Both the position numbers and the translations under genes were made by a program. A stretch of 64,000 nt of DNA, taken from the NCBI GenBank assembly GCA_040386775.1, contig JAZKEU010000017.1, forward strand, positions 85,464-149,463, in the 5' to 3' direction. Positions 3,455 to 20,143 of the stretch are shown in pieces. The notes beneath the pieces were generated by a model. The model was not told the origin of the DNA, searched no databases, and saw only the letters and a program-made list of their open reading frames with translations. The stretch's first letter is position 1; every line of letters begins with the position of its first letter. Origin of the DNA: Bdellovibrionota bacterium (GTDB lineage Bacteria; Bdellovibrionota; Bdellovibrionia; Bdellovibrionales; JAEYZS01).

Positions 3455-3481
3455 TAAGACCTTTGTCTGCTACTCCGATAG
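3455..3481 (+). promoter_or_regulatory. Candidate sigma-28 (FliA) type promoter for fliL
   Basis: TAAG-N15-TCCGATAG compared with the consensus TAAA-N15-GCCGATAA. The spacing is exactly 15 nt and the -10 element ends 47 nt upstream of the ATG at 3528. Confidence 0.4.
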
Positions 3482-13379: not shown

Positions 13380-14075
13380 TTATTTAAAGTTGATAGCGCG
13401 TTTTGTTTCTTGGCAAAGCTCACGAATATCTTTGTAACAAGTTTGAATGCAAGAATCCGCGTGTTTATTTATTTGCGAGATAACGCTATTTATTTCTGGA
13501 TCTTCGAATTTTTGTTGAGCAACTAATTCATGAAACTGACTCATGCTTTGAGAGAGGAAATTTTGATTTTCCTGGCATATTGCATATTCAGCACTCTCGC
13601 TCCCTTGAGCTATACCTAGAATACGCTTTGCTAGGCCTCTAGAATAATAAAAATTTGTATCGTCATAAGTGGGAGACCACCACAGTAATTCGTGAATGGC
13701 GTATTTTATTTTTCCTTCTTGATCGAGCGATGTCCATCCTCTTGCTTTGTTAGGATCGCAGTAAAGTTCTAGTCTATTTTTCTTTGGATGACTGCAGGCA
13801 ATTGGATTGTCAGTGTTTGGACACTTCTCGATTGGTTTTTCTTTTACGACGATCACAAAGTCCGGATTCCTTGACGGCTCTGCTACATTGAAAGCCTCTA
13901 GTAAGATTCTTAGATCTGTCGGTGTGGTGTTGTGCGAAGGTGCAGAAGATATCCAGGCCAAGGTATTCATAAAATCTTCTTTGCATGGATGGCCACCGCC
14001 GCCTCCCTCGTTAGCGCGATTTGCAAATGCAAATGATGTAGATAAACAAATAGCGATAAATATTATTTTTTTCAT
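13380..14075 (-). CDS. Secreted protein of unknown function (polyGly ... HE motif family)
   Basis: Signal peptide, then NEGGGGGH, and later QEGKIKYAIHELLWW. This parallels the 7135-8400 lipoprotein. 4-nt overlap with the upstream TIGR02147 gene. Confidence 0.65.
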   Translation of the reverse strand: MKKIIFIAICLSTSFAFANRANEGGGGGHPCKEDFMNTLAWISSAPSHNTTPTDLRILLEAFNVAEPSRNPDFVIVVKEKPIEKCPNTDNPIACSHPKKNRLELYCDPNKARGWTSLDQEGKIKYAIHELLWWSPTYDDTNFYYSRGLAKRILGIAQGSESAEYAICQENQNFLSQSMSQFHELVAQQKFEDPEINSVISQINKHADSCIQTCYKDIRELCQETKRAINFK

Positions 14076-14836
14076 GCAGGTTCTCTTTTTTCTAAAGACG
14101 TTACTGGATAAAGTTGTACAGCCAGATGGAAAACAGCATCGCCGTCACCATCTTCCATAAAAGCCGCTAATTCACGGCGGAATTTCTTAATTACATCTTT
14201 TACTTCAATTAATTTCTTGGAGTTCCCAGCAATAGTCATAGAAGTAATATCTTTTAAATCTTGTGGGCAGCCATCAATTGCGTGTAAAGATTTTTCTACA
14301 ATTTGTCTTTGGTATTCTTTATGAGCAGCGGAAGTGTCGCCTTCTTTATAATTTGAAAAACTCATTTGAGTTTTTACCAATTTGCTATCTTGTTCTGCTA
14401 AAAGCTCCAAGCGTTTTAAGCGATCTATAGCTATTGAAACTTCGGTCACGGAAATTCCTAACTGTTGTGCAATCCAAGACGGGTTGCTATCAAAGTTTTT
14501 TAATAATGTTAAATCCAAAATGGCGAAGTGATACCAATCAGATATTGCTGCAAATAAATCTTTGCTCAAGAGAGAGTATTTTTTCCCCATACTCTGTTGC
14601 AAATTTTCCGAATCAAAAACAAATGCCATTCCGATTTTACTCTCGATTTTTTCTAACATTGATTGTGATACTTTTCGCTTACCAGACAACATTTGTGAAA
14701 CTGTAGATGGGTCAAGTGCCAAACTTTTTGCGAAAGCTCTTAAAGAATAGCGAGAGTTCACTCTGCAGCGACGTGTGAATTCTTCTTGTAACCAAATTTT
14801 AAAATAACTAAGTTCGATAGGGCTTAAGTTTTTCAT
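14072..14836 (-). CDS. TIGR02147-family HTH protein (DUF4423-type), paralogue 2
   Basis: SYFKIWLQEEFTRRCRVNSRYSLRAFAKSLALDPSTVSQMLSGKRKVS matches the family signature. 254 aa. Confidence 0.8.
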   Translation of the reverse strand: MKNLSPIELSYFKIWLQEEFTRRCRVNSRYSLRAFAKSLALDPSTVSQMLSGKRKVSQSMLEKIESKIGMAFVFDSENLQQSMGKKYSLLSKDLFAAISDWYHFAILDLTLLKNFDSNPSWIAQQLGISVTEVSIAIDRLKRLELLAEQDSKLVKTQMSFSNYKEGDTSAAHKEYQRQIVEKSLHAIDGCPQDLKDITSMTIAGNSKKLIEVKDVIKKFRRELAAFMEDGDGDAVFHLAVQLYPVTSLEKREPA

Positions 14837-14883
14837 AGTGCTGCGCAGTATGAATGATTCGGCCTTTTATTTAAAGAAAAAAA

Positions 14884-14916
14884 GCCACAATGTGTGGCAT
14901 GAGACATGCCACACAT
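14884..14916. promoter_or_regulatory. GCCACA-atg-TGTGGC-atgagacat-GCCACA composite palindrome (candidate operator)
   Basis: ATGTGTGGCAT-gagac-ATGCCACACAT is a perfect 11-bp inverted repeat. It contains TGTGGC-N9-GCCACA, the same half-sites and spacing as at 13321-13341. It lies 50-80 bp upstream of the TIGR02147 start at 14836. Confidence 0.45.
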
Positions 14917-15024
14917 TTAAAATGCTGATTTTATTTAAATATTTAAAAATTAGATTCAGGTATTTTTTCCATGAACAGGATCAATACAGTCAAGATCAAC
15001 TCACTAAAGACTTACAAGGAGTTC

Positions 15025-15747
15025 TTACTGTTTTTTCTTACGTTGTTTGAGAAAAAAGTAGAGTCCTACGGCGATGAGGATGATTCCTAATCCGAAAATC
15101 TTTTCTTTCATTCCAGAGGCGCCTCCCTGTTCGTCGGGATATTCTAAGCCCTCATCCACCAGCATATCGCCTGGGAATGCGCCACCGATTGGCGCACCCA
15201 AAGATTCTGAGCCTGGTCTAATGGGAGCTAAGCCAGTGCCGATTTTATTGGGAGCATTCACTTTCAAACTTAAGATGGCTTTAAAGAAATCATTACTGAA
15301 TTTGGTATAAACTTTTTTGTGTGCACTGAAGGTGACAAGGACTGCGATGCTTTGTTTTGTCGTTGCTAAGTATCTCGTGTAGTAAGTTGAGATTTCGCTA
15401 CCGAGTTGTAGACCGTCAATCCAATCATGATCATTGATTTTGCGAGTCTTAACGCCTTTCAGTTGAGAGGGAATTGGTTTTCCTCCCGGGCCAGGGATGG
15501 ATTTTAATTGTTTAAGGTAGGCGTCGTAGTGTTGAAGAGAGTCGGTGGGTCCAACCTCTTTTGCAGTTAAAATAATGATCGCAGTTTGTGCATCAGATTT
15601 TTGTTCTGATCTGCAAATCCATTCTGTTGCTTCAGATTGGCAATCCCATTTTGCGGGTAATTCGAAACTCACGTATGAGTTTGAAAAAAGTTTTGCGTGA
15701 GAATTTAAAGAAAAGAATACGATGAATAAAACGAAGATGTGTTTCAT
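15025..15747 (-). CDS. Hypothetical secreted protein with a C-terminal membrane anchor
   Basis: Signal peptide (FVLFIVFFSLNSHA) and a C-terminal TM followed by a basic tail (IFGLGIILIAVGLYFFLKQRKKKQ). Confidence 0.6.
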   Translation of the reverse strand: MKHIFVLFIVFFSLNSHAKLFSNSYVSFELPAKWDCQSEATEWICRSEQKSDAQTAIIILTAKEVGPTDSLQHYDAYLKQLKSIPGPGGKPIPSQLKGVKTRKINDHDWIDGLQLGSEISTYYTRYLATTKQSIAVLVTFSAHKKVYTKFSNDFFKAILSLKVNAPNKIGTGLAPIRPGSESLGAPIGGAFPGDMLVDEGLEYPDEQGGASGMKEKIFGLGIILIAVGLYFFLKQRKKKQ

Positions 15748-15831
15748 TGCTATATTCTGTCAAAAACAAATGAGTCTGTTAATAGTTATAGTGATTTGTG
15801 ACGGGAAACATATGACCTAGGTCGTGAGAAG

Positions 15832-15851
15832 GGGGATCGAAATCGATCCCC
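15832..15851 (-). terminator. Hairpin downstream of the S8 protease gene
   Basis: Perfect GGGGATCGA-aa-TCGATCCCC stem 9 bp past the stop. There is only a weak U-run on the minus strand. Confidence 0.3.
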
Positions 15852-15859
15852 GGAGTCAT

Positions 15860-17638
15860 TTATTGAGCAACTGCGCTCAACATGATTGAAGGATTACTTG
15901 CGGCTCTTACCGCGGCAGCAGCATCAACAACTTTTCCAGAAGTCAGTTTGCTTCTTAGGGCAGCAGATGATCTTCCTGAGTTCATGATGATTGCTTTCAC
16001 TTGTTCAGCTGTCAGATCTGGGTTTACAGACTTCACTAACGCTGCGATACCAGTAACTACAGGAGAAGCCATCGACGTTCCAGGGTAAGCAATGTAACTG
16101 CTAAGATCAGTCTGAGCGTATGTTGACCATAATGGACGCTCTCTTGTTCCACCTGGAGCAGCGATATCTACTGTTTTCAAACCGTAGTTTGAGTACTCAG
16201 TGAGAGAATCAGCTTCATCTGTTGCAGCTACTGCCAAAACATTTGATCCATCTTTGGAAGTTAAGAAAGATTCCACAGCATCCGTATTTGTAGTTTCATT
16301 TCCTGATGCCGCTACGATGAGGATTCCTTTTTGTTGTGCTTTTTTGATAGCGGCAAGAACCATTGGGCTCGCTTTTCCTTCGCCACCTAAAGACATGTTG
16401 ATCACATCTACATCCTGTTTAACAGCGTAGTATATTGCTGATACGATGGATGCTAAAGACCCACTTCCACTTGGCAACATCGCTTTTACAGGAAGGATTT
16501 TTGCTTTCTTTGCAATTCCAGATACGGAAGAGGCTGCTAATCCCGCAACGTGAGTTCCGTGCGATTCATCATCATATGGATATTGATCACCGATTGCGAA
16601 ATCCCAACCGTAGACGTCATCAATAAATCCGTTTTTGTCGTCGTCAACGCCGTTTCCTGCCACTTCTTTTTCATTGATTTTGATATTTTCACTTAAATCA
16701 GGGTGATTGTAGTTCACGCCTGAATCGATGATGGCGATGGTGACGCCTTCACCTTGAGTTGTTTGCCAAGCTTCTTCACCATTTACTAGCGGAACATGAA
16801 AGTATTTTTGGGCATTGTATTGTCCTTTATTTCCAATTCCTCCGACGAATTTTTTGTTGTGAGTAGCTCCAACCATCACTCCCGCAAGATCGCAAGCTTT
16901 TGTACTTGTGTCTTGTGCGATAAGTGCCACGAAGTAACCGCCTGGGCGATCTGGATTTACAGAAATCTTTGAGCCAGTTGCTTCTGCAAGAGTTGTAGAT
17001 CCAGGAGGGGCTTCAACGACCCAACTCAATTTTATGCTGGAAGCTGCTGCTTCCGGTGCAGTAGCGAATGGATTTTTAAATAAACCTTTTAATGGGTTCC
17101 AAATGCTGGATCCTTCTTCTGAAGTTTGCTGAGCGGCTTGAGTGAGTGTACCTTCGCCTCGAAACTCTAGAGCTACGCTTCCAACTTCGACAGTGTTTTG
17201 TGCCACCAAGTTGACTTCATTCGTCAATTGTAGCTTTGCAGCTGGGCCACCCAATGGAAGAAGTTTGCAGTCTAATTTATACAAAGCTTCTTCGATAGAT
17301 GCTCTCTTTGAAAAAGTCTCTCTGTTGTTCACATCGAAACCAGGATCTTTCATATTAATGTAGATATCTTCTTCTGCGTATGCAGCTGGCATTCTTTCTT
17401 GAACATCAACTAGCTTTGCATCTTGAATTTGATAGATGTTGTCTTCGCGACTCACAATAGTCACTTTGTTTGCTGGAAACAAAGCTTGAACCTCTTCTTG
17501 TGATTTAGATTCTGTTTGAACAACTACGCCATTTGATTTTTTGTTGAAAGGTCTTTGAGCCTTCCCGCAACCAACCTGCGCACTTACTCCCATTACACTT
17601 AGCACTAATAAAAGTGCACGTCCCCCAGTAGTAGCCAT
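15860..17638 (-). CDS. S8 family (subtilisin-like) serine protease lipoprotein
   Basis: Catalytic triad motifs AIIDSGVNYNHPD, HGTHVAG and GTSMASP. Lipoprotein-type signal LSVMGVSAQVGC. Confidence 0.9.
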   Translation of the reverse strand: MATTGGRALLLVLSVMGVSAQVGCGKAQRPFNKKSNGVVVQTESKSQEEVQALFPANKVTIVSREDNIYQIQDAKLVDVQERMPAAYAEEDIYINMKDPGFDVNNRETFSKRASIEEALYKLDCKLLPLGGPAAKLQLTNEVNLVAQNTVEVGSVALEFRGEGTLTQAAQQTSEEGSSIWNPLKGLFKNPFATAPEAAASSIKLSWVVEAPPGSTTLAEATGSKISVNPDRPGGYFVALIAQDTSTKACDLAGVMVGATHNKKFVGGIGNKGQYNAQKYFHVPLVNGEEAWQTTQGEGVTIAIIDSGVNYNHPDLSENIKINEKEVAGNGVDDDKNGFIDDVYGWDFAIGDQYPYDDESHGTHVAGLAASSVSGIAKKAKILPVKAMLPSGSGSLASIVSAIYYAVKQDVDVINMSLGGEGKASPMVLAAIKKAQQKGILIVAASGNETTNTDAVESFLTSKDGSNVLAVAATDEADSLTEYSNYGLKTVDIAAPGGTRERPLWSTYAQTDLSSYIAYPGTSMASPVVTGIAALVKSVNPDLTAEQVKAIIMNSGRSSAALRSKLTSGKVVDAAAAVRAASNPSIMLSAVAQ

Positions 17639-17810
17639 TTTTCCCCCCTGCTAACTCGACCCTTGCCTAGACACCCCCGTGTCTTCGTCCGGTTAACCTC
17701 CCTCAAGGTTCACTGGACTTATCGCTTTGTCGTTTGGCTCATGACTTCGTGAGCTGTTTCGACTCCGCTGTAGGCTGGACTTACGTCCGGTCTCGCTTCC
17801 TAATTCAAAG
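17639..17810 (-). promoter_or_regulatory. Long GC-rich structured 5' leader of the S8 protease gene (unclassified cis-regulatory RNA candidate)
   Basis: About 56% G+C by hand count over 17641-17800, against a very AT-rich flank. Hairpins include GGAC-GUAA-GUCC and GACAC-GGGG-GUGUC. The complementary motifs CCGGACG and UAAGUCCAG are each duplicated. Confidence 0.4.
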
Positions 17811-17833
17811 TTTTTAGTAGCTAAAAGTAGTTA

Positions 17834-17844
17834 TTACAATGTAA
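17834..17844. promoter_or_regulatory. TTACA-A-TGTAA palindrome in the LysR/protease divergent promoter (candidate LysR box)
   Basis: Perfect 11-bp palindrome inside ATTACAATGTAAT (T-N11-A-like). It lies between the protease leader and the LysR start. Confidence 0.35.
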
Positions 17845-17913
17845 ATTTTTTTCGGTGAACTATAAGCAAATCTTATGTTAGAAAGGCTTACCTCAGAAAA
17901 TTGGAAGGTTAGA

Positions 17914-18807
17914 ATGAATTTTCAGCACTTAATCACGTTTTGTACTGTTCTAATGGAAAAAAGTATGACCGCTGCGGCGCAGAAACTATTTCTTACTCAG
18001 CCCGCTGTAAGCCAACAAATTCGACAACTCGAAGAATACTTGGGAGTTGAACTTTTAGTTCGTGGTGTAAGACAAATTCAATCCAGTCCACAAGGACATT
18101 TGCTCTTCGAATATGCACAAAAAATCATTCGTCTCTCGAAGGAAGCTGAAGTTGCAATTCAAACTATGGGCGGTGAAGTTACGGGGCCATTGAGAGTTGC
18201 AACATTGAACTCACTTGGTCTTCATTTATTGGGCCCAGTGTTCGCTCTATTTTTAAAAAATAATAAGAATGTAAAATTGCATCTCGAGTACGCTAAAGGC
18301 CAAGATCTCATCAACGGCGTGGTGAAGGGTGATTTTGATATTATCCTACTTCCAGACGCGGAAAAAGAGTATGGCGAAGATCCAAAAGATTGTAAGAAAA
18401 TAAAAATTTCTTATGACGAGATGTGGTTAGTAGTTTCTTCAAGAGCAGAAGTTCCGGCACAAATTAAGCTCAAAGATATCATGGCTCATCCGTTTGTAAG
18501 CATCATTGGAGAGTACCCAGGATTTGAATCATTACTCAGTAAATCTTTAAGAAAAGAAGATCAAAAGATCACTTCAGTGTTTGAGTCTTCAAACGTTGGA
18601 ACACTTAAGAGAATCATCGAAGCAGGTCTTGGTTGGGGATTTTTGCCTTCTCACAGTATCAAAAAGCAAATTGAGGCGGGAAGACTCAAAAGAATCCAAA
18701 TTCAAGATTTTGAATACACAATGGATTTGTGCTGTTACGTGAACAAAACTAGAAGTCAGCTCAAGTCTACAGAAGTATTCTTAAAAGCTTTGGAACAGCA
18801 ACGTTAG
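17914..18807 (+). CDS. LysR family transcriptional regulator
   Basis: The N-terminal HTH MTAAAQKLFLTQPAVSQQIRQLEEYLGVELL begins 14 aa after the M at 17914 (GGAAGG 5 nt upstream). LysR substrate-binding domain length. The track ORF starts at 17875. Confidence 0.9.
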   Translation: MNFQHLITFCTVLMEKSMTAAAQKLFLTQPAVSQQIRQLEEYLGVELLVRGVRQIQSSPQGHLLFEYAQKIIRLSKEAEVAIQTMGGEVTGPLRVATLNSLGLHLLGPVFALFLKNNKNVKLHLEYAKGQDLINGVVKGDFDIILLPDAEKEYGEDPKDCKKIKISYDEMWLVVSSRAEVPAQIKLKDIMAHPFVSIIGEYPGFESLLSKSLRKEDQKITSVFESSNVGTLKRIIEAGLGWGFLPSHSIKKQIEAGRLKRIQIQDFEYTMDLCCYVNKTRSQLKSTEVFLKALEQQR

Positions 18808-18830
18808 ACTAATTCTTCTGCTTAACTTTT

Positions 18831-19664
18831 CTAAAATATTTCTTCTTTGACCCCGAAGCGTTTAGAAATAATTTTGATTATCTCTGAAGCGGTTTCTTCT
18901 AAAGCTCTCGATGTAACATCGAAGACGGGCCATTTTTTATTTTTCTTATAGAGTTCATCTGCAAATTGGATTTCGTCTAAAACGTGTTGCAGGCTTGCGT
19001 AATCAGAATTTCCGTCTCCAAGTTTTGAAAGGCGATTTGCTCTAATCAAGGAAAGTTTATCAGGATCAATCGTAAGGGCGATAACTTTTCGTTGGTCGGC
19101 CTCAAAAATTTCTTTGGGTGGAGGCACATTCACTACAAGAGGAACATTTGCTACCTTCCAACCTTTGTGGCTTAAGAAAATCGAAAGTGGGGTTTTACTA
19201 GTTCTGCTGATTCCCACCAGAATGATTTCGGCGTTTTCTAAATCTCTTAACTCTTTTCCATCATCGTGCTTTACTGTGAATTCGATTGCATCGATTCTTT
19301 TAAAATATTTTTCATCGACAGCTCTCAAGATACCAGCCTGCATGGGTTTATGAATATCAAAGTAATTGTCCAAGCCGCCAAGAAGGGGGCCGAGTAAATC
19401 CACATGAGGAATATTTTGAGCTATAGCTTGCTTTTGAATTTCGGTTCTTAGATCTTGTGAAACCACAGTATAAACAATAAAGCCTTGATTTGCTATAGCT
19501 TCATCGATGATTGATTTGACTTGGTCTGGAGCCCTTACATTTTTGAAGCGCACTAAGCTTGCATCAACGCCCTTGTACTGAACGAGAGCGGCCTTGGTCA
19601 TCAGCGATGCGGTCTCACCTGTACCATCTGAAATGATATATATGATGCTTTTAGAAGTTCTCAT
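18831..19664 (-). CDS. Pyruvate,phosphate dikinase / PEP synthase regulatory protein (DUF299 kinase-pyrophosphorylase)
   Basis: IYIISDGTGETA N-terminus and P-loop-like VGISRTSKTPLS. 277 aa. Confidence 0.88.
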   Translation of the reverse strand: MRTSKSIIYIISDGTGETASLMTKAALVQYKGVDASLVRFKNVRAPDQVKSIIDEAIANQGFIVYTVVSQDLRTEIQKQAIAQNIPHVDLLGPLLGGLDNYFDIHKPMQAGILRAVDEKYFKRIDAIEFTVKHDDGKELRDLENAEIILVGISRTSKTPLSIFLSHKGWKVANVPLVVNVPPPKEIFEADQRKVIALTIDPDKLSLIRANRLSKLGDGNSDYASLQHVLDEIQFADELYKKNKKWPVFDVTSRALEETASEIIKIISKRFGVKEEIF

Positions 19665-20143
19665 GTGTGAGTGGGACTCACGTCTTCAACGACCGTCACT
19701 TGTAGTTCTTCAAAATCATCCTTCATTATTTTCATAAACTGATTCACATCAACACCTTTTGGTAAAAAAATCCGCGCTGTGCGAGGTTTCAGTTGTTTTA
19801 AGCCCAACATAATCTGATCTGTCCATGATTTGATATCTTGAAAATTTCTGATCATTACTGTCGAAGTGTTTGGAAGATAGTTTTGTGTAGAAAGAAGAGT
19901 CTGTTCATATTGAGTTTTAAGATTGATATCGAAATGAATGTCTTCCTCAGTTAAAATTCCTTTGAGAGTTCCAGAAAGATCTCTTCTTGTTTTCTGATTG
20001 CACCGGTCGTTGCTAAGTGCGATCAGAAAATTGATATGCCAATCTAGAAATCTAGTCCAACCGCTGATATTTTTTTCTGGAATAAACCAAACCTGTGAGC
20101 CTGACTTAAGAGCATGAAATGGATGAAGTTTTTCGATCGCCAT
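19661..20143 (-). CDS. Hypothetical protein
   Basis: 160-aa ORF whose 3' end overlaps the start of the downstream regulatory-protein gene (18831-19664) by 4 nt. No family recognised. Confidence 0.5.
   Translation of the reverse strand: MAIEKLHPFHALKSGSQVWFIPEKNISGWTRFLDWHINFLIALSNDRCNQKTRRDLSGTLKGILTEEDIHFDINLKTQYEQTLLSTQNYLPNTSTVMIRNFQDIKSWTDQIMLGLKQLKPRTARIFLPKGVDVNQFMKIMKDDFEELQVTVVEDVSPTHT

Follow-up and report, generated by a model that had tools for sequence, protein, structure and literature searches.

A conserved structured leader of an S8 protease gene, probably a narrowly distributed cis-acting RNA element of one Bdellovibrionales clade

The protease locus and its leader

A gene for an S8 subtilase and a divergently oriented gene for a LysR-family regulator enclose an intergenic region (17639-17913, given a LysR start at 17914) in the 64,000-nucleotide (nt) stretch of a Bdellovibrionota contig (JAZKEU010000017.1) analysed here, hereafter called the window (positions are those of the window unless another locus is named). 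On the protease (minus) strand this region carries a G+C-rich leader, and by comparing it with the leaders of orthologous loci we reason that it probably represents a new cis-acting RNA element of gene control with a narrow distribution. As the LysR start, the ATG at 17914 is more likely than that at 17875, since the resulting 297 amino acids (aa) equal the length called in most orthologues. The coordinates of all features are compiled in Table 1.

A prior inspection of the window from its letters alone (the sequence-only reading) had described a G+C-rich leader with duplicated complementary motifs in AT-rich surroundings. All the elements that it listed were found in the window sequence where it had placed them, within the minus-strand region 17639-17810, and its estimate of about 56% G+C was reproduced (56.2% over 17641-17800, as compared with 39.1% for the window; only 0.4% of the 160-nt windows were as high). 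The minimum free energy (MFE) of the 181-nt leader was -54.1 kcal/mol (z = -2.16 relative to dinucleotide shuffles), and a repeat finder recovered CTGGACTTA twice (17713 and 17775) and CGTCCGGT twice (17686 and 17784). The duplication taken alone is only mildly unusual, because mononucleotide shuffles of the 167-nt leader contained a repeated 9-mer in 9% of cases and at least three repeated 8-mers in 3.5%. Judged from the aligned loci, the stronger case against chance is the conservation and covariation of the leader at orthologous positions.

Table 1. Features of the protease-LysR intergenic region and its flanking genes, in window positions
Feature	Position	Strand	Remarks
S8 subtilase gene	15860-17638	-	592 aa; lipoprotein-type signal (..AQVGC); Pfam Peptidase_S8, E = 1.7e-58
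Early-coding hairpin GCACU-UUUAUU-AGUGC, +20 to +39	17600-17619	-	82% of cells paired
Shine-Dalgarno G6 run, with A5 and the AUG (17638) after it	17643-17648	-	G5-G7 kept in the 11 core loci
P1, 3' strand GGUCGAGUU	17653-17661	-	partner of 17789-17797
P4 hairpin GACAC-GGGG-GUGUC	17670-17683	-	GACA-UGAGGG-UGUC in nine orthologues
P3, GUCCAG-UGAACCUUGAGGGAGGUUAA-CCGGAC	17687-17718	-	outer and inner stem; loop UGAGGG at 17700-17705
Insertion unit, 62 nt, clade-specific	17713-17774	-	56-nt imperfect hairpin and second GUCCAG copy
P2 hairpin CCGGAC-GUAA-GUCCAG (the GNRA hairpin of the sequence-only reading)	17775-17790	-	GAC/GUC core nearly invariant
P1, 5' strand AGCGAGACC	17789-17797	-	pairs with 17653-17661 around tandem G·A/A·G
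Sigma-70-like candidate promoter TTGTAA-N17-TAAAAA	17811-17839	-	predicted start ~17804
Perfect palindrome TTACAATGTAA, 11 nt	17834-17844	.	identical in 13 of 14 loci; degenerate only in L003
FliA/sigma-28-like candidate ATAAG-N16-CCGAAA	17850-17876	-	9 of 11 bases, exact spacing
Dyad ATAAG-N5-CTTAT, T-N11-A box, candidate LysR-type site	17862-17876	.	CTTAT half invariant in 14 loci
Divergently oriented gene of the LysR-family regulator	17914-18807	+	297 aa; Pfam HTH_1 and LysR_substrate

Conservation of the leader fold and the clade-specific insertion

Ten further loci from Bdellovibrionales metagenomes share the leader between a divergent LysR gene and an S8 lipoprotein protease gene. The core alignment thus comprises 11 leaders (the window, L001, L002, L081-L085, L089, L170 and L171) from about seven lineages, with protease identities of 52-96%. 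The closest protease relative is that of L001, a Bdellovibrionales metagenome-assembled genome (96% identity); the protein search recovered orthologues at 44-96% (44-72% beyond L001), and the most distant one is that of L003 (35%). A metagenome scan derived from the protease alignment, with generic S8 peptide motifs as patterns, returned no orthologues. While the leader measures ~105 nt in most relatives, it reaches ~165 nt in the window because of an insertion; the common short form (e.g., L083) reads AGGAAsCGAGACC-rGAC-tetraloop-GUCyAG-..-AAAUCU-UGAGGG-AGAUUU-AA-CCGGAC-..-GACA-UGAGGG-UGUC-..-GGyCGAGsU-..-G5-7-A-rich-AUG.

The shared fold consists of a closing helix with tandem G·A (P1), a long hairpin (P3) and a short one (P4). 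P1 pairs AGC-GA-GACC with GGUC-GA-GUU through tandem G·A/A·G and places the 5' end of the leader beside the ribosome-binding site, the 3' edge of the fold lying 5-8 nt before the G5-G7 Shine-Dalgarno run. In P3 a six-pair outer stem (GUCCAG/CCGGAC, in which an A·C mismatch is kept) is followed by a 2x2 internal loop, invariably AA on its 3' side, and by an inner stem of five to six pairs across loci (AACCU/AGGUU in the window), so that the outer helix encloses an AACCU-UGAGGG-AGGUU hairpin. The G-rich loop UGAGGG is common to P3 and P4, except that in the P4 of the window and L001 CGGGGG replaces AUGAGGG. RNAalifold and the single-sequence MFE structures agreed, as P3 and P4 were present in all ten leaders folded, and the long-range closing helix in all but L085 (nine leaders).

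Pairing was maintained through compensatory exchange. In P3 (12 pairs) 92.9% of the alignment cells were paired and 7 pairs had changed on both sides, while in P4 (6 pairs) all cells were paired (100%) and one pair occurred as AU, GC and GU. Counted together on unedited sequences (starting at the outer strand of P3 and ending at the AUG), the two hairpins reached 95.3% paired cells with 8 pairs changed on both sides, a result that none of 500 shuffles equalled (0/500) and that slid controls did not approach (11-45% paired). The five P1 pairs that flank the tandem G·A were 94.5% paired in the unedited full leaders (one of them as GC, GU, AU and CG), and 85.7% when seven pairs were counted. For the whole fold including P1, in the edited alignment A4, 91.4% of the cells were paired and 9 pairs (19 cells) showed two-sided exchange; 0-3 of 500 shuffles were as good. 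We thus find what is expected of a structured aptamer backed by covariation (91-95% paired, 8-9 pairs changed on both sides), and the long structured leader that the sequence-only reading had put on the protease strand is borne out: its GUCCAG/CCGGAC and GACAC/GUGUC helices are conserved, with compensatory changes, in the 10 further loci. As the alignment has it, the leader is a closed multi-helix domain that has been preserved in evolution.

The pattern of invariance differs between parts of the fold. CUUGAGGGAG and UAAC (3' of inner P3) are invariant in the 11 sequences, GACAUGAGGGUGUC is nearly so, and the G-rich loop of P4 and its flanking stem bases are nearly invariant as well. The P3/P4 and P4/P1 junctions vary; the invariant positions are the two terminal loops, UAAC and the CGAG of P1.

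Two readings that dispense with a structured RNA can be weighed against these data. The inverted repeats could be DNA operators, for LysR or another factor, that lie downstream of the promoter: the region adjoins the conserved LysR gene and holds two direct repeats (yWTGAGGGWG) spaced ~27-33 nt apart. We regard this as very improbable, for dimeric DNA sites keep bases, not complementarity, whereas here the stems change in a compensatory manner around an invariant asymmetric loop and the long-range helix P1 links segments 70-135 nt apart. Moreover, 30 G·U cells were counted against 15 A·C cells, and pairing was better on the sense strand (91.4%) than on the antisense strand (85.9%); both fit an RNA on the protease strand. 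The other reading, a leader peptide from an upstream open reading frame (uORF) or else a plus-strand gene, is hardly credible. An AUG does occur in the P4 loop of nine orthologues, and the same AUGAGGGUG serves L003 as its actual start codon; but the frame may be 0, 1 or 2, the length is 4-14 or more codons, L083 runs in frame into the main open reading frame, the window has ACG instead, and the indels are not multiples of three. A uORF from the P4 AUG was therefore rejected (neither frame nor length is kept, and the AUG is absent from the window), and on the plus strand only reading frames of 27-29 aa were present.

In L003 (2972-3000) the start codon lies inside a UGAGGG-capped hairpin (AAUCCA-UGAGGG-UGGAUU), 5 nt past a G6 run; the loop motif may, on this comparison, be older than the two-hairpin leader. 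In the orthologous loci L086 (52% protease identity), L087/L088 (44%) and L003 (35%) the LysR gene and the promoter boxes are kept and the leaders are different. The replacement of the leader in L086 points to a leader turnover that is faster than that of the LysR gene and the promoter boxes. The replacement itself (L086, 1883-2000) comprises four small predicted hairpins, two of them AAAA-capped, and a Shine-Dalgarno AAGGA.

A further hairpin, located within the signal-peptide coding region of the protease gene (GUACU..AGUAC in most relatives), shows a U-A to C-G exchange in the window/L001 pair and in L082 (Val GTA to Ala GCA, together with a synonymous GTA to GTG); 82% of its cells were paired and none of 500 shuffles was as good (0/500).

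Known RNA families gave no counterpart. The Rfam check that the sequence-only reading had proposed for the minus-strand sequence was run and identified no family: Rfam 15 (4227 models) had no match in the whole window at the gathering threshold, its sole match at E <= 10 in 17400-18100 was a chance long non-coding RNA inside the coding region, and the leaders of eight orthologous loci yielded nothing at E <= 10. A covariance model (R1) built from the leaders recognised one copy in the window (75.8 bits) and, across 91 loci (548 kb), the orthologous leaders only. Hairpins capped with GAGGG were not enriched (10, as compared with 12.9 expected), YWTGAGGGWG occurred once in the window (0.87 expected), and a scan of viral contigs with the double-loop pattern gave no match. 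On present data, the element is, as far as these searches extend, a single-gene, single-clade motif.

The duplicated motifs trace back to an insertion of 62 nt, found in the window and L001, with the direct repeat UAAGUCCAG (9 nt; 17775-17783 and 17713-17721) at its boundaries. It duplicates the GUCYAG strand (b); seven short-form leaders have no insertion and a single GUCYAG. The insert folds as an imperfect hairpin of its own, in which the window and L001 copies differ by three bases, all at unpaired positions, and apart from L001 it has no copy in the examined DNA (window and orthologous loci). A miniature inverted-repeat transposable element, a repetitive extragenic palindrome or another mobile repeat was rejected as its source (the window holds the 16-nt hairpin once, and the 62-nt insert is found elsewhere only in L001). 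At the same site L081 and L082 carry shorter, unrelated inserts, again with two copies of b each. Considering that the three insert-bearing lineages (window, L081 and L082) form one clade (69-73% identity), their sequences are most economically explained by one ancestral duplication.

In the short forms, strand b can pair either with an upstream CCRGAC (a), forming P2, or with the downstream CCGGAC (c), forming outer P3. The sequence-only reading had seen in the duplication a set of mutually exclusive folds, an idea that is not supported: the duplication is the clade-specific insertion, P2 and outer P3 form together in the MFE structures of the long forms, that of the window included, and thus it removes the competition rather than creating it. 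P2 itself was paired in 78.8% of cells, showed no covariation signal and has variable loops (GUAA, GUAG, GUUA, AUUG, UUUG and AAAA). The two b copies of L081 (b1 and b2) have diverged so that each matches its own partner, which hints that both helices are maintained. A switch between P2 and outer P3 in the short forms is conceivable from the folding models, in which the forcing of P2 costs 3-8 kcal/mol above the MFE.

Promoter region and gene neighbourhood

The promoter alignment covers 14 loci, including those that lack the RNA motif, and all of them keep ACCATAAG-N5-CTTATA...CACCGAAAAAAATTTACATTGTAAT together with a downstream CTAAAAA. Within the dyad, the ATAAG half differs by one base in a single locus (L087). 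We infer, from the general box pattern of LysR-type transcriptional regulators (LTTRs), that the dyad belongs to the LysR protein. The sigma-70-like hexamers keep their positions in the alignment and match 8 of 12 bases, which is below the threshold of the sigma-70 scan of 17500-18000 (none found at that threshold). If transcription started at ~17804, as these hexamers predict, the dyad would be centred at -65 and the palindrome, ~30 bp downstream of it, at -35. These positions are the classical geometry of a LysR-type regulator.

The same stretch also admits a FliA-type promoter. In Bdellovibrio bacteriovorus the attack-phase promoters of FliA (sigma-28) have the consensus TTAAG-N16-CCGATA (PMC3627812); the CCGAAA of the window candidate is shared by the 11 core loci and missing from L087 and L003, and the enrichment of the sigma-28-like pattern in the window (12 matches, 7.7 expected) is not significant. 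TAAG-N16-CCGAWA is matched exactly a second time on the plus strand (3455-3480); the match at 17850-17876 overlaps the LysR-type dyad. From either predicted start, the leader would be at least 165 nt long.

A divergent LysR gene and an intergenic T-N11-A dyad, the hallmarks of LTTR control, are thus both present, and the LysR gene, the palindrome and the dyad are conserved. The sequence-only reading had proposed that the protease is governed at the promoter and at the RNA level; such dual control, LysR-type and RNA-based, is plausible in the light of this conservation.

In every orthologous locus whose flank was retrieved, whether or not DNA came with it, the divergent LysR gene was called, in most cases at 297 aa, and an NCBIfam search for its subfamily retrieved no model at its cut-off. 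Gene order was the same wherever both flanks were returned: kinase/pyrophosphorylase, LysR (divergent), S8 protease and a ~240-aa protein of unassigned function, the last being displaced by one inserted gene in L087/L088. In the window (13380-20143) and in L081-L089 this order is strictly kept, the kinase/pyrophosphorylase being PF03618; the ~240-aa partner (15025-15747) has no Pfam or NCBIfam match, and in relatives its gene is often followed by one for an M16 peptidase. A gene for an HTH_3 and DUF4423 protein (14072-14836, minus strand) adjoins that of a 231-aa protein without an NCBIfam match.

Translational control and known systems

The output side of the leader may be the ribosome-binding site. 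A terminator scan of 17500-18000 found none and no U-run follows P4 in the window, so transcription attenuation was rejected. Partition functions revealed no conserved partner that would sequester the Shine-Dalgarno run, whose unpaired probability was 0.42-0.98 in the ensembles. Neither kind of riboswitch expression platform (terminator or Shine-Dalgarno-sequestering helix) was therefore found, nor the feature of an RNA thermometer, the run being unpaired in the MFE structure and in the ensembles alike. Of the RNA-level control suggested by the sequence-only reading, the conserved structured leader stands, while the riboswitch or attenuator logic is not supported, neither a terminator nor a helix that would mask the Shine-Dalgarno run having been found. 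The G6 run is the only one of G5 or longer upstream of the 45 candidate starts in the window, where GGAG, AGGA and GAGG are common, and GGA is invariant at two places, the loop/stem border of P3 and the 3' end of the G-run.

The G-run extends to G10 in L088. The proteases of L087 and L088 are identical (P0016) and their poly-G tracts differ (G7 at 1985-2000 and G10 at 1592-1610, respectively), which could reflect slipped-strand variation or an assembly error. Two other uses of the G-rich motifs were tried and discarded: a G-quadruplex, judged by eye (loops of 11-22 nt; three G3 tracts and the G-run in most loci; only G5 in L171), and pairing of the loops with the 5' region of LysR (CCUCA at ~17893), which is not conserved at other loci.

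We reason that the leader may act on translation through a factor in trans, a reading that, taken broadly, has about an even chance of being correct. The leader would be a docking platform that presents two G-rich loops along with the G-rich ribosome-binding site; a trans-acting factor would bind both loops and the ribosome-binding site and so set the rate of translation initiation and, hence, the stability of the mRNA. A CsrA-type RNA-binding protein that acts as a dimer would be one candidate factor; the 30S subunit and a small RNA (sRNA) would be others, each through GAGG/CCUC pairing. Transcription of the leader would be a separate matter, probably set at the T-N11-A dyad and the palindrome by the divergent LysR-type regulator. 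In B. bacteriovorus CsrA is active and implicated in predation, and Bdellovibrionota encode CsrA (PMC13443453). A docking platform is favoured over a small-molecule pocket because the junctions and the P2 loop vary while the G-rich loops do not, and because neither a terminator nor an anti-Shine-Dalgarno helix is present.

Several points weigh against control by a trans-acting factor. Neither a second copy of the motif nor UGAGGG-capped hairpins were found in the 64-kb window or in the 548 kb of other loci, so there is no evidence of a regulon. A GGA is missing from the P4 loop (GAGGGU) and that of P3 straddles loop and stem, so that a canonical CsrA site is matched only in part. The different leaders of L086 and L087/L088 indicate, on their sequences, that the gene can do without the element. 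With 11 sequences from one uncultured clade the data set is small, the A4 alignment behind the whole-fold figures had clade-specific insertions removed by hand, and the 5' end of the leader is taken from a predicted start. Last, a riboswitch aptamer, too, looks like a closed junction fold immediately ahead of the ribosome-binding site.

A riboswitch of a new class, in which a small molecule or second messenger bound in the P1/P3/P4 junction alters access to the Shine-Dalgarno run (by stabilising P1 or by shifting the competition between P2 and outer P3), is unlikely in our estimate. It would account for a compact, covariation-backed domain closed by P1 at 5-8 nt from the Shine-Dalgarno run, and the short forms offer it an alternative conformer, since their GUCYAG strand pairs either upstream or downstream at a cost (3-8 kcal/mol) that a ligand could bridge; the clade of the window, L081 and L082 keeps both partners as separate helices. 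Yet the junction nucleotides, the usual site of a ligand pocket, are unconserved while the terminal loops are invariant, no terminator and no conserved anti-Shine-Dalgarno pairing exist, and Rfam has no match at E <= 10 in the window or the eight orthologous leaders. Besides, the context of a protease gene points to no metabolite, and the long forms are maintained though they lack the strand competition. A fuller version, in which the leader is the aptamer of a riboswitch or RNA-sensor class restricted to this Bdellovibrionales clade and ties protease translation to a prey-derived or second-messenger signal, with the P2/outer-P3 competition of the short forms as the switch and the twin G-rich loops in the ligand or tertiary core, seems distinctly unlikely.

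The leader might also be a constitutive element that responds to no signal: a 5' stabiliser and ribosome stand-by site or enhancer, whose loops and G-run recruit the 30S subunit and whose closed fold protects the 5' end. GAGG, the core of both loops, is complementary to the CCUC of the 16S anti-Shine-Dalgarno, the Shine-Dalgarno run is open in all predicted ensembles, the structure starts within ~8 nt of the sigma-70-like predicted start, and the clade accepts large insertions between P2 and P3. We consider it improbable all the same, for the 10 nt around the P3 loop and UAAC are strictly invariant despite a protein divergence of 52%, which exceeds the needs of a generic stabiliser, and the orthologues L086 and L087 do without the leader.

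Post-transcriptional control in predatory bacteria is, to our knowledge, little known, and we are aware only of riboswitch RNAs for cyclic di-GMP (c-di-GMP) and a few attack-phase sRNAs that have been described. A covariation-backed leader at a secreted-type protease would offer a testable handle on the timing of a predator's hydrolytic enzyme, and should the effector prove to be CsrA or a novel RNA-binding protein, its recognition element would be the UGAGGG-capped hairpin. The narrow distribution (one uncultured clade and one gene family) limits the general impact.

At the promoter, the locus resembles the divergent promoters of LTTRs in its divergent LysR gene, its T-N11-A dyad and the second palindrome ~30 bp downstream, but differs in that the same bases also fit a FliA-type promoter and that the start is a predicted one. 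At the RNA level, the logic proposed for the protease leader, two similar loops and a dimeric reader, is that of the thrS operator of Escherichia coli. In that operator, a dimeric protein recognises two similar hairpin loops adjoining the ribosome-binding site and competes with the 30S subunit; the loops resemble a tRNA anticodon, and the protein is encoded by the regulated gene itself, whereas nothing points to RNA binding by the protease. With the leaders controlled by CsrA/RsmA (Bacillus subtilis hag, E. coli glgC), the protease leader shares at least two purine-rich single-stranded sites (at least one displayed by a hairpin loop, another located at the Shine-Dalgarno sequence), the lack of a terminator and an output that would be translation, in Bdellovibrionota with an active CsrA (PMC13443453). 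Those leaders present a canonical A(N)GGA inside the loop, unlike the U-GAGG-G found here, where P4 has no GGA and that of P3 spans loop and stem. Finally, orphan riboswitch candidates and Rfam leader motifs differ from the present element, which has no Rfam 15 match at E <= 10, unconserved junctions and no expression platform found; what they have in common is a covarying multi-helix 5' leader directly before the ribosome-binding site, here in a predator lineage that uses RNA sensors, c-di-GMP-I riboswitches being known in Bdellovibrio (PMC3627812).

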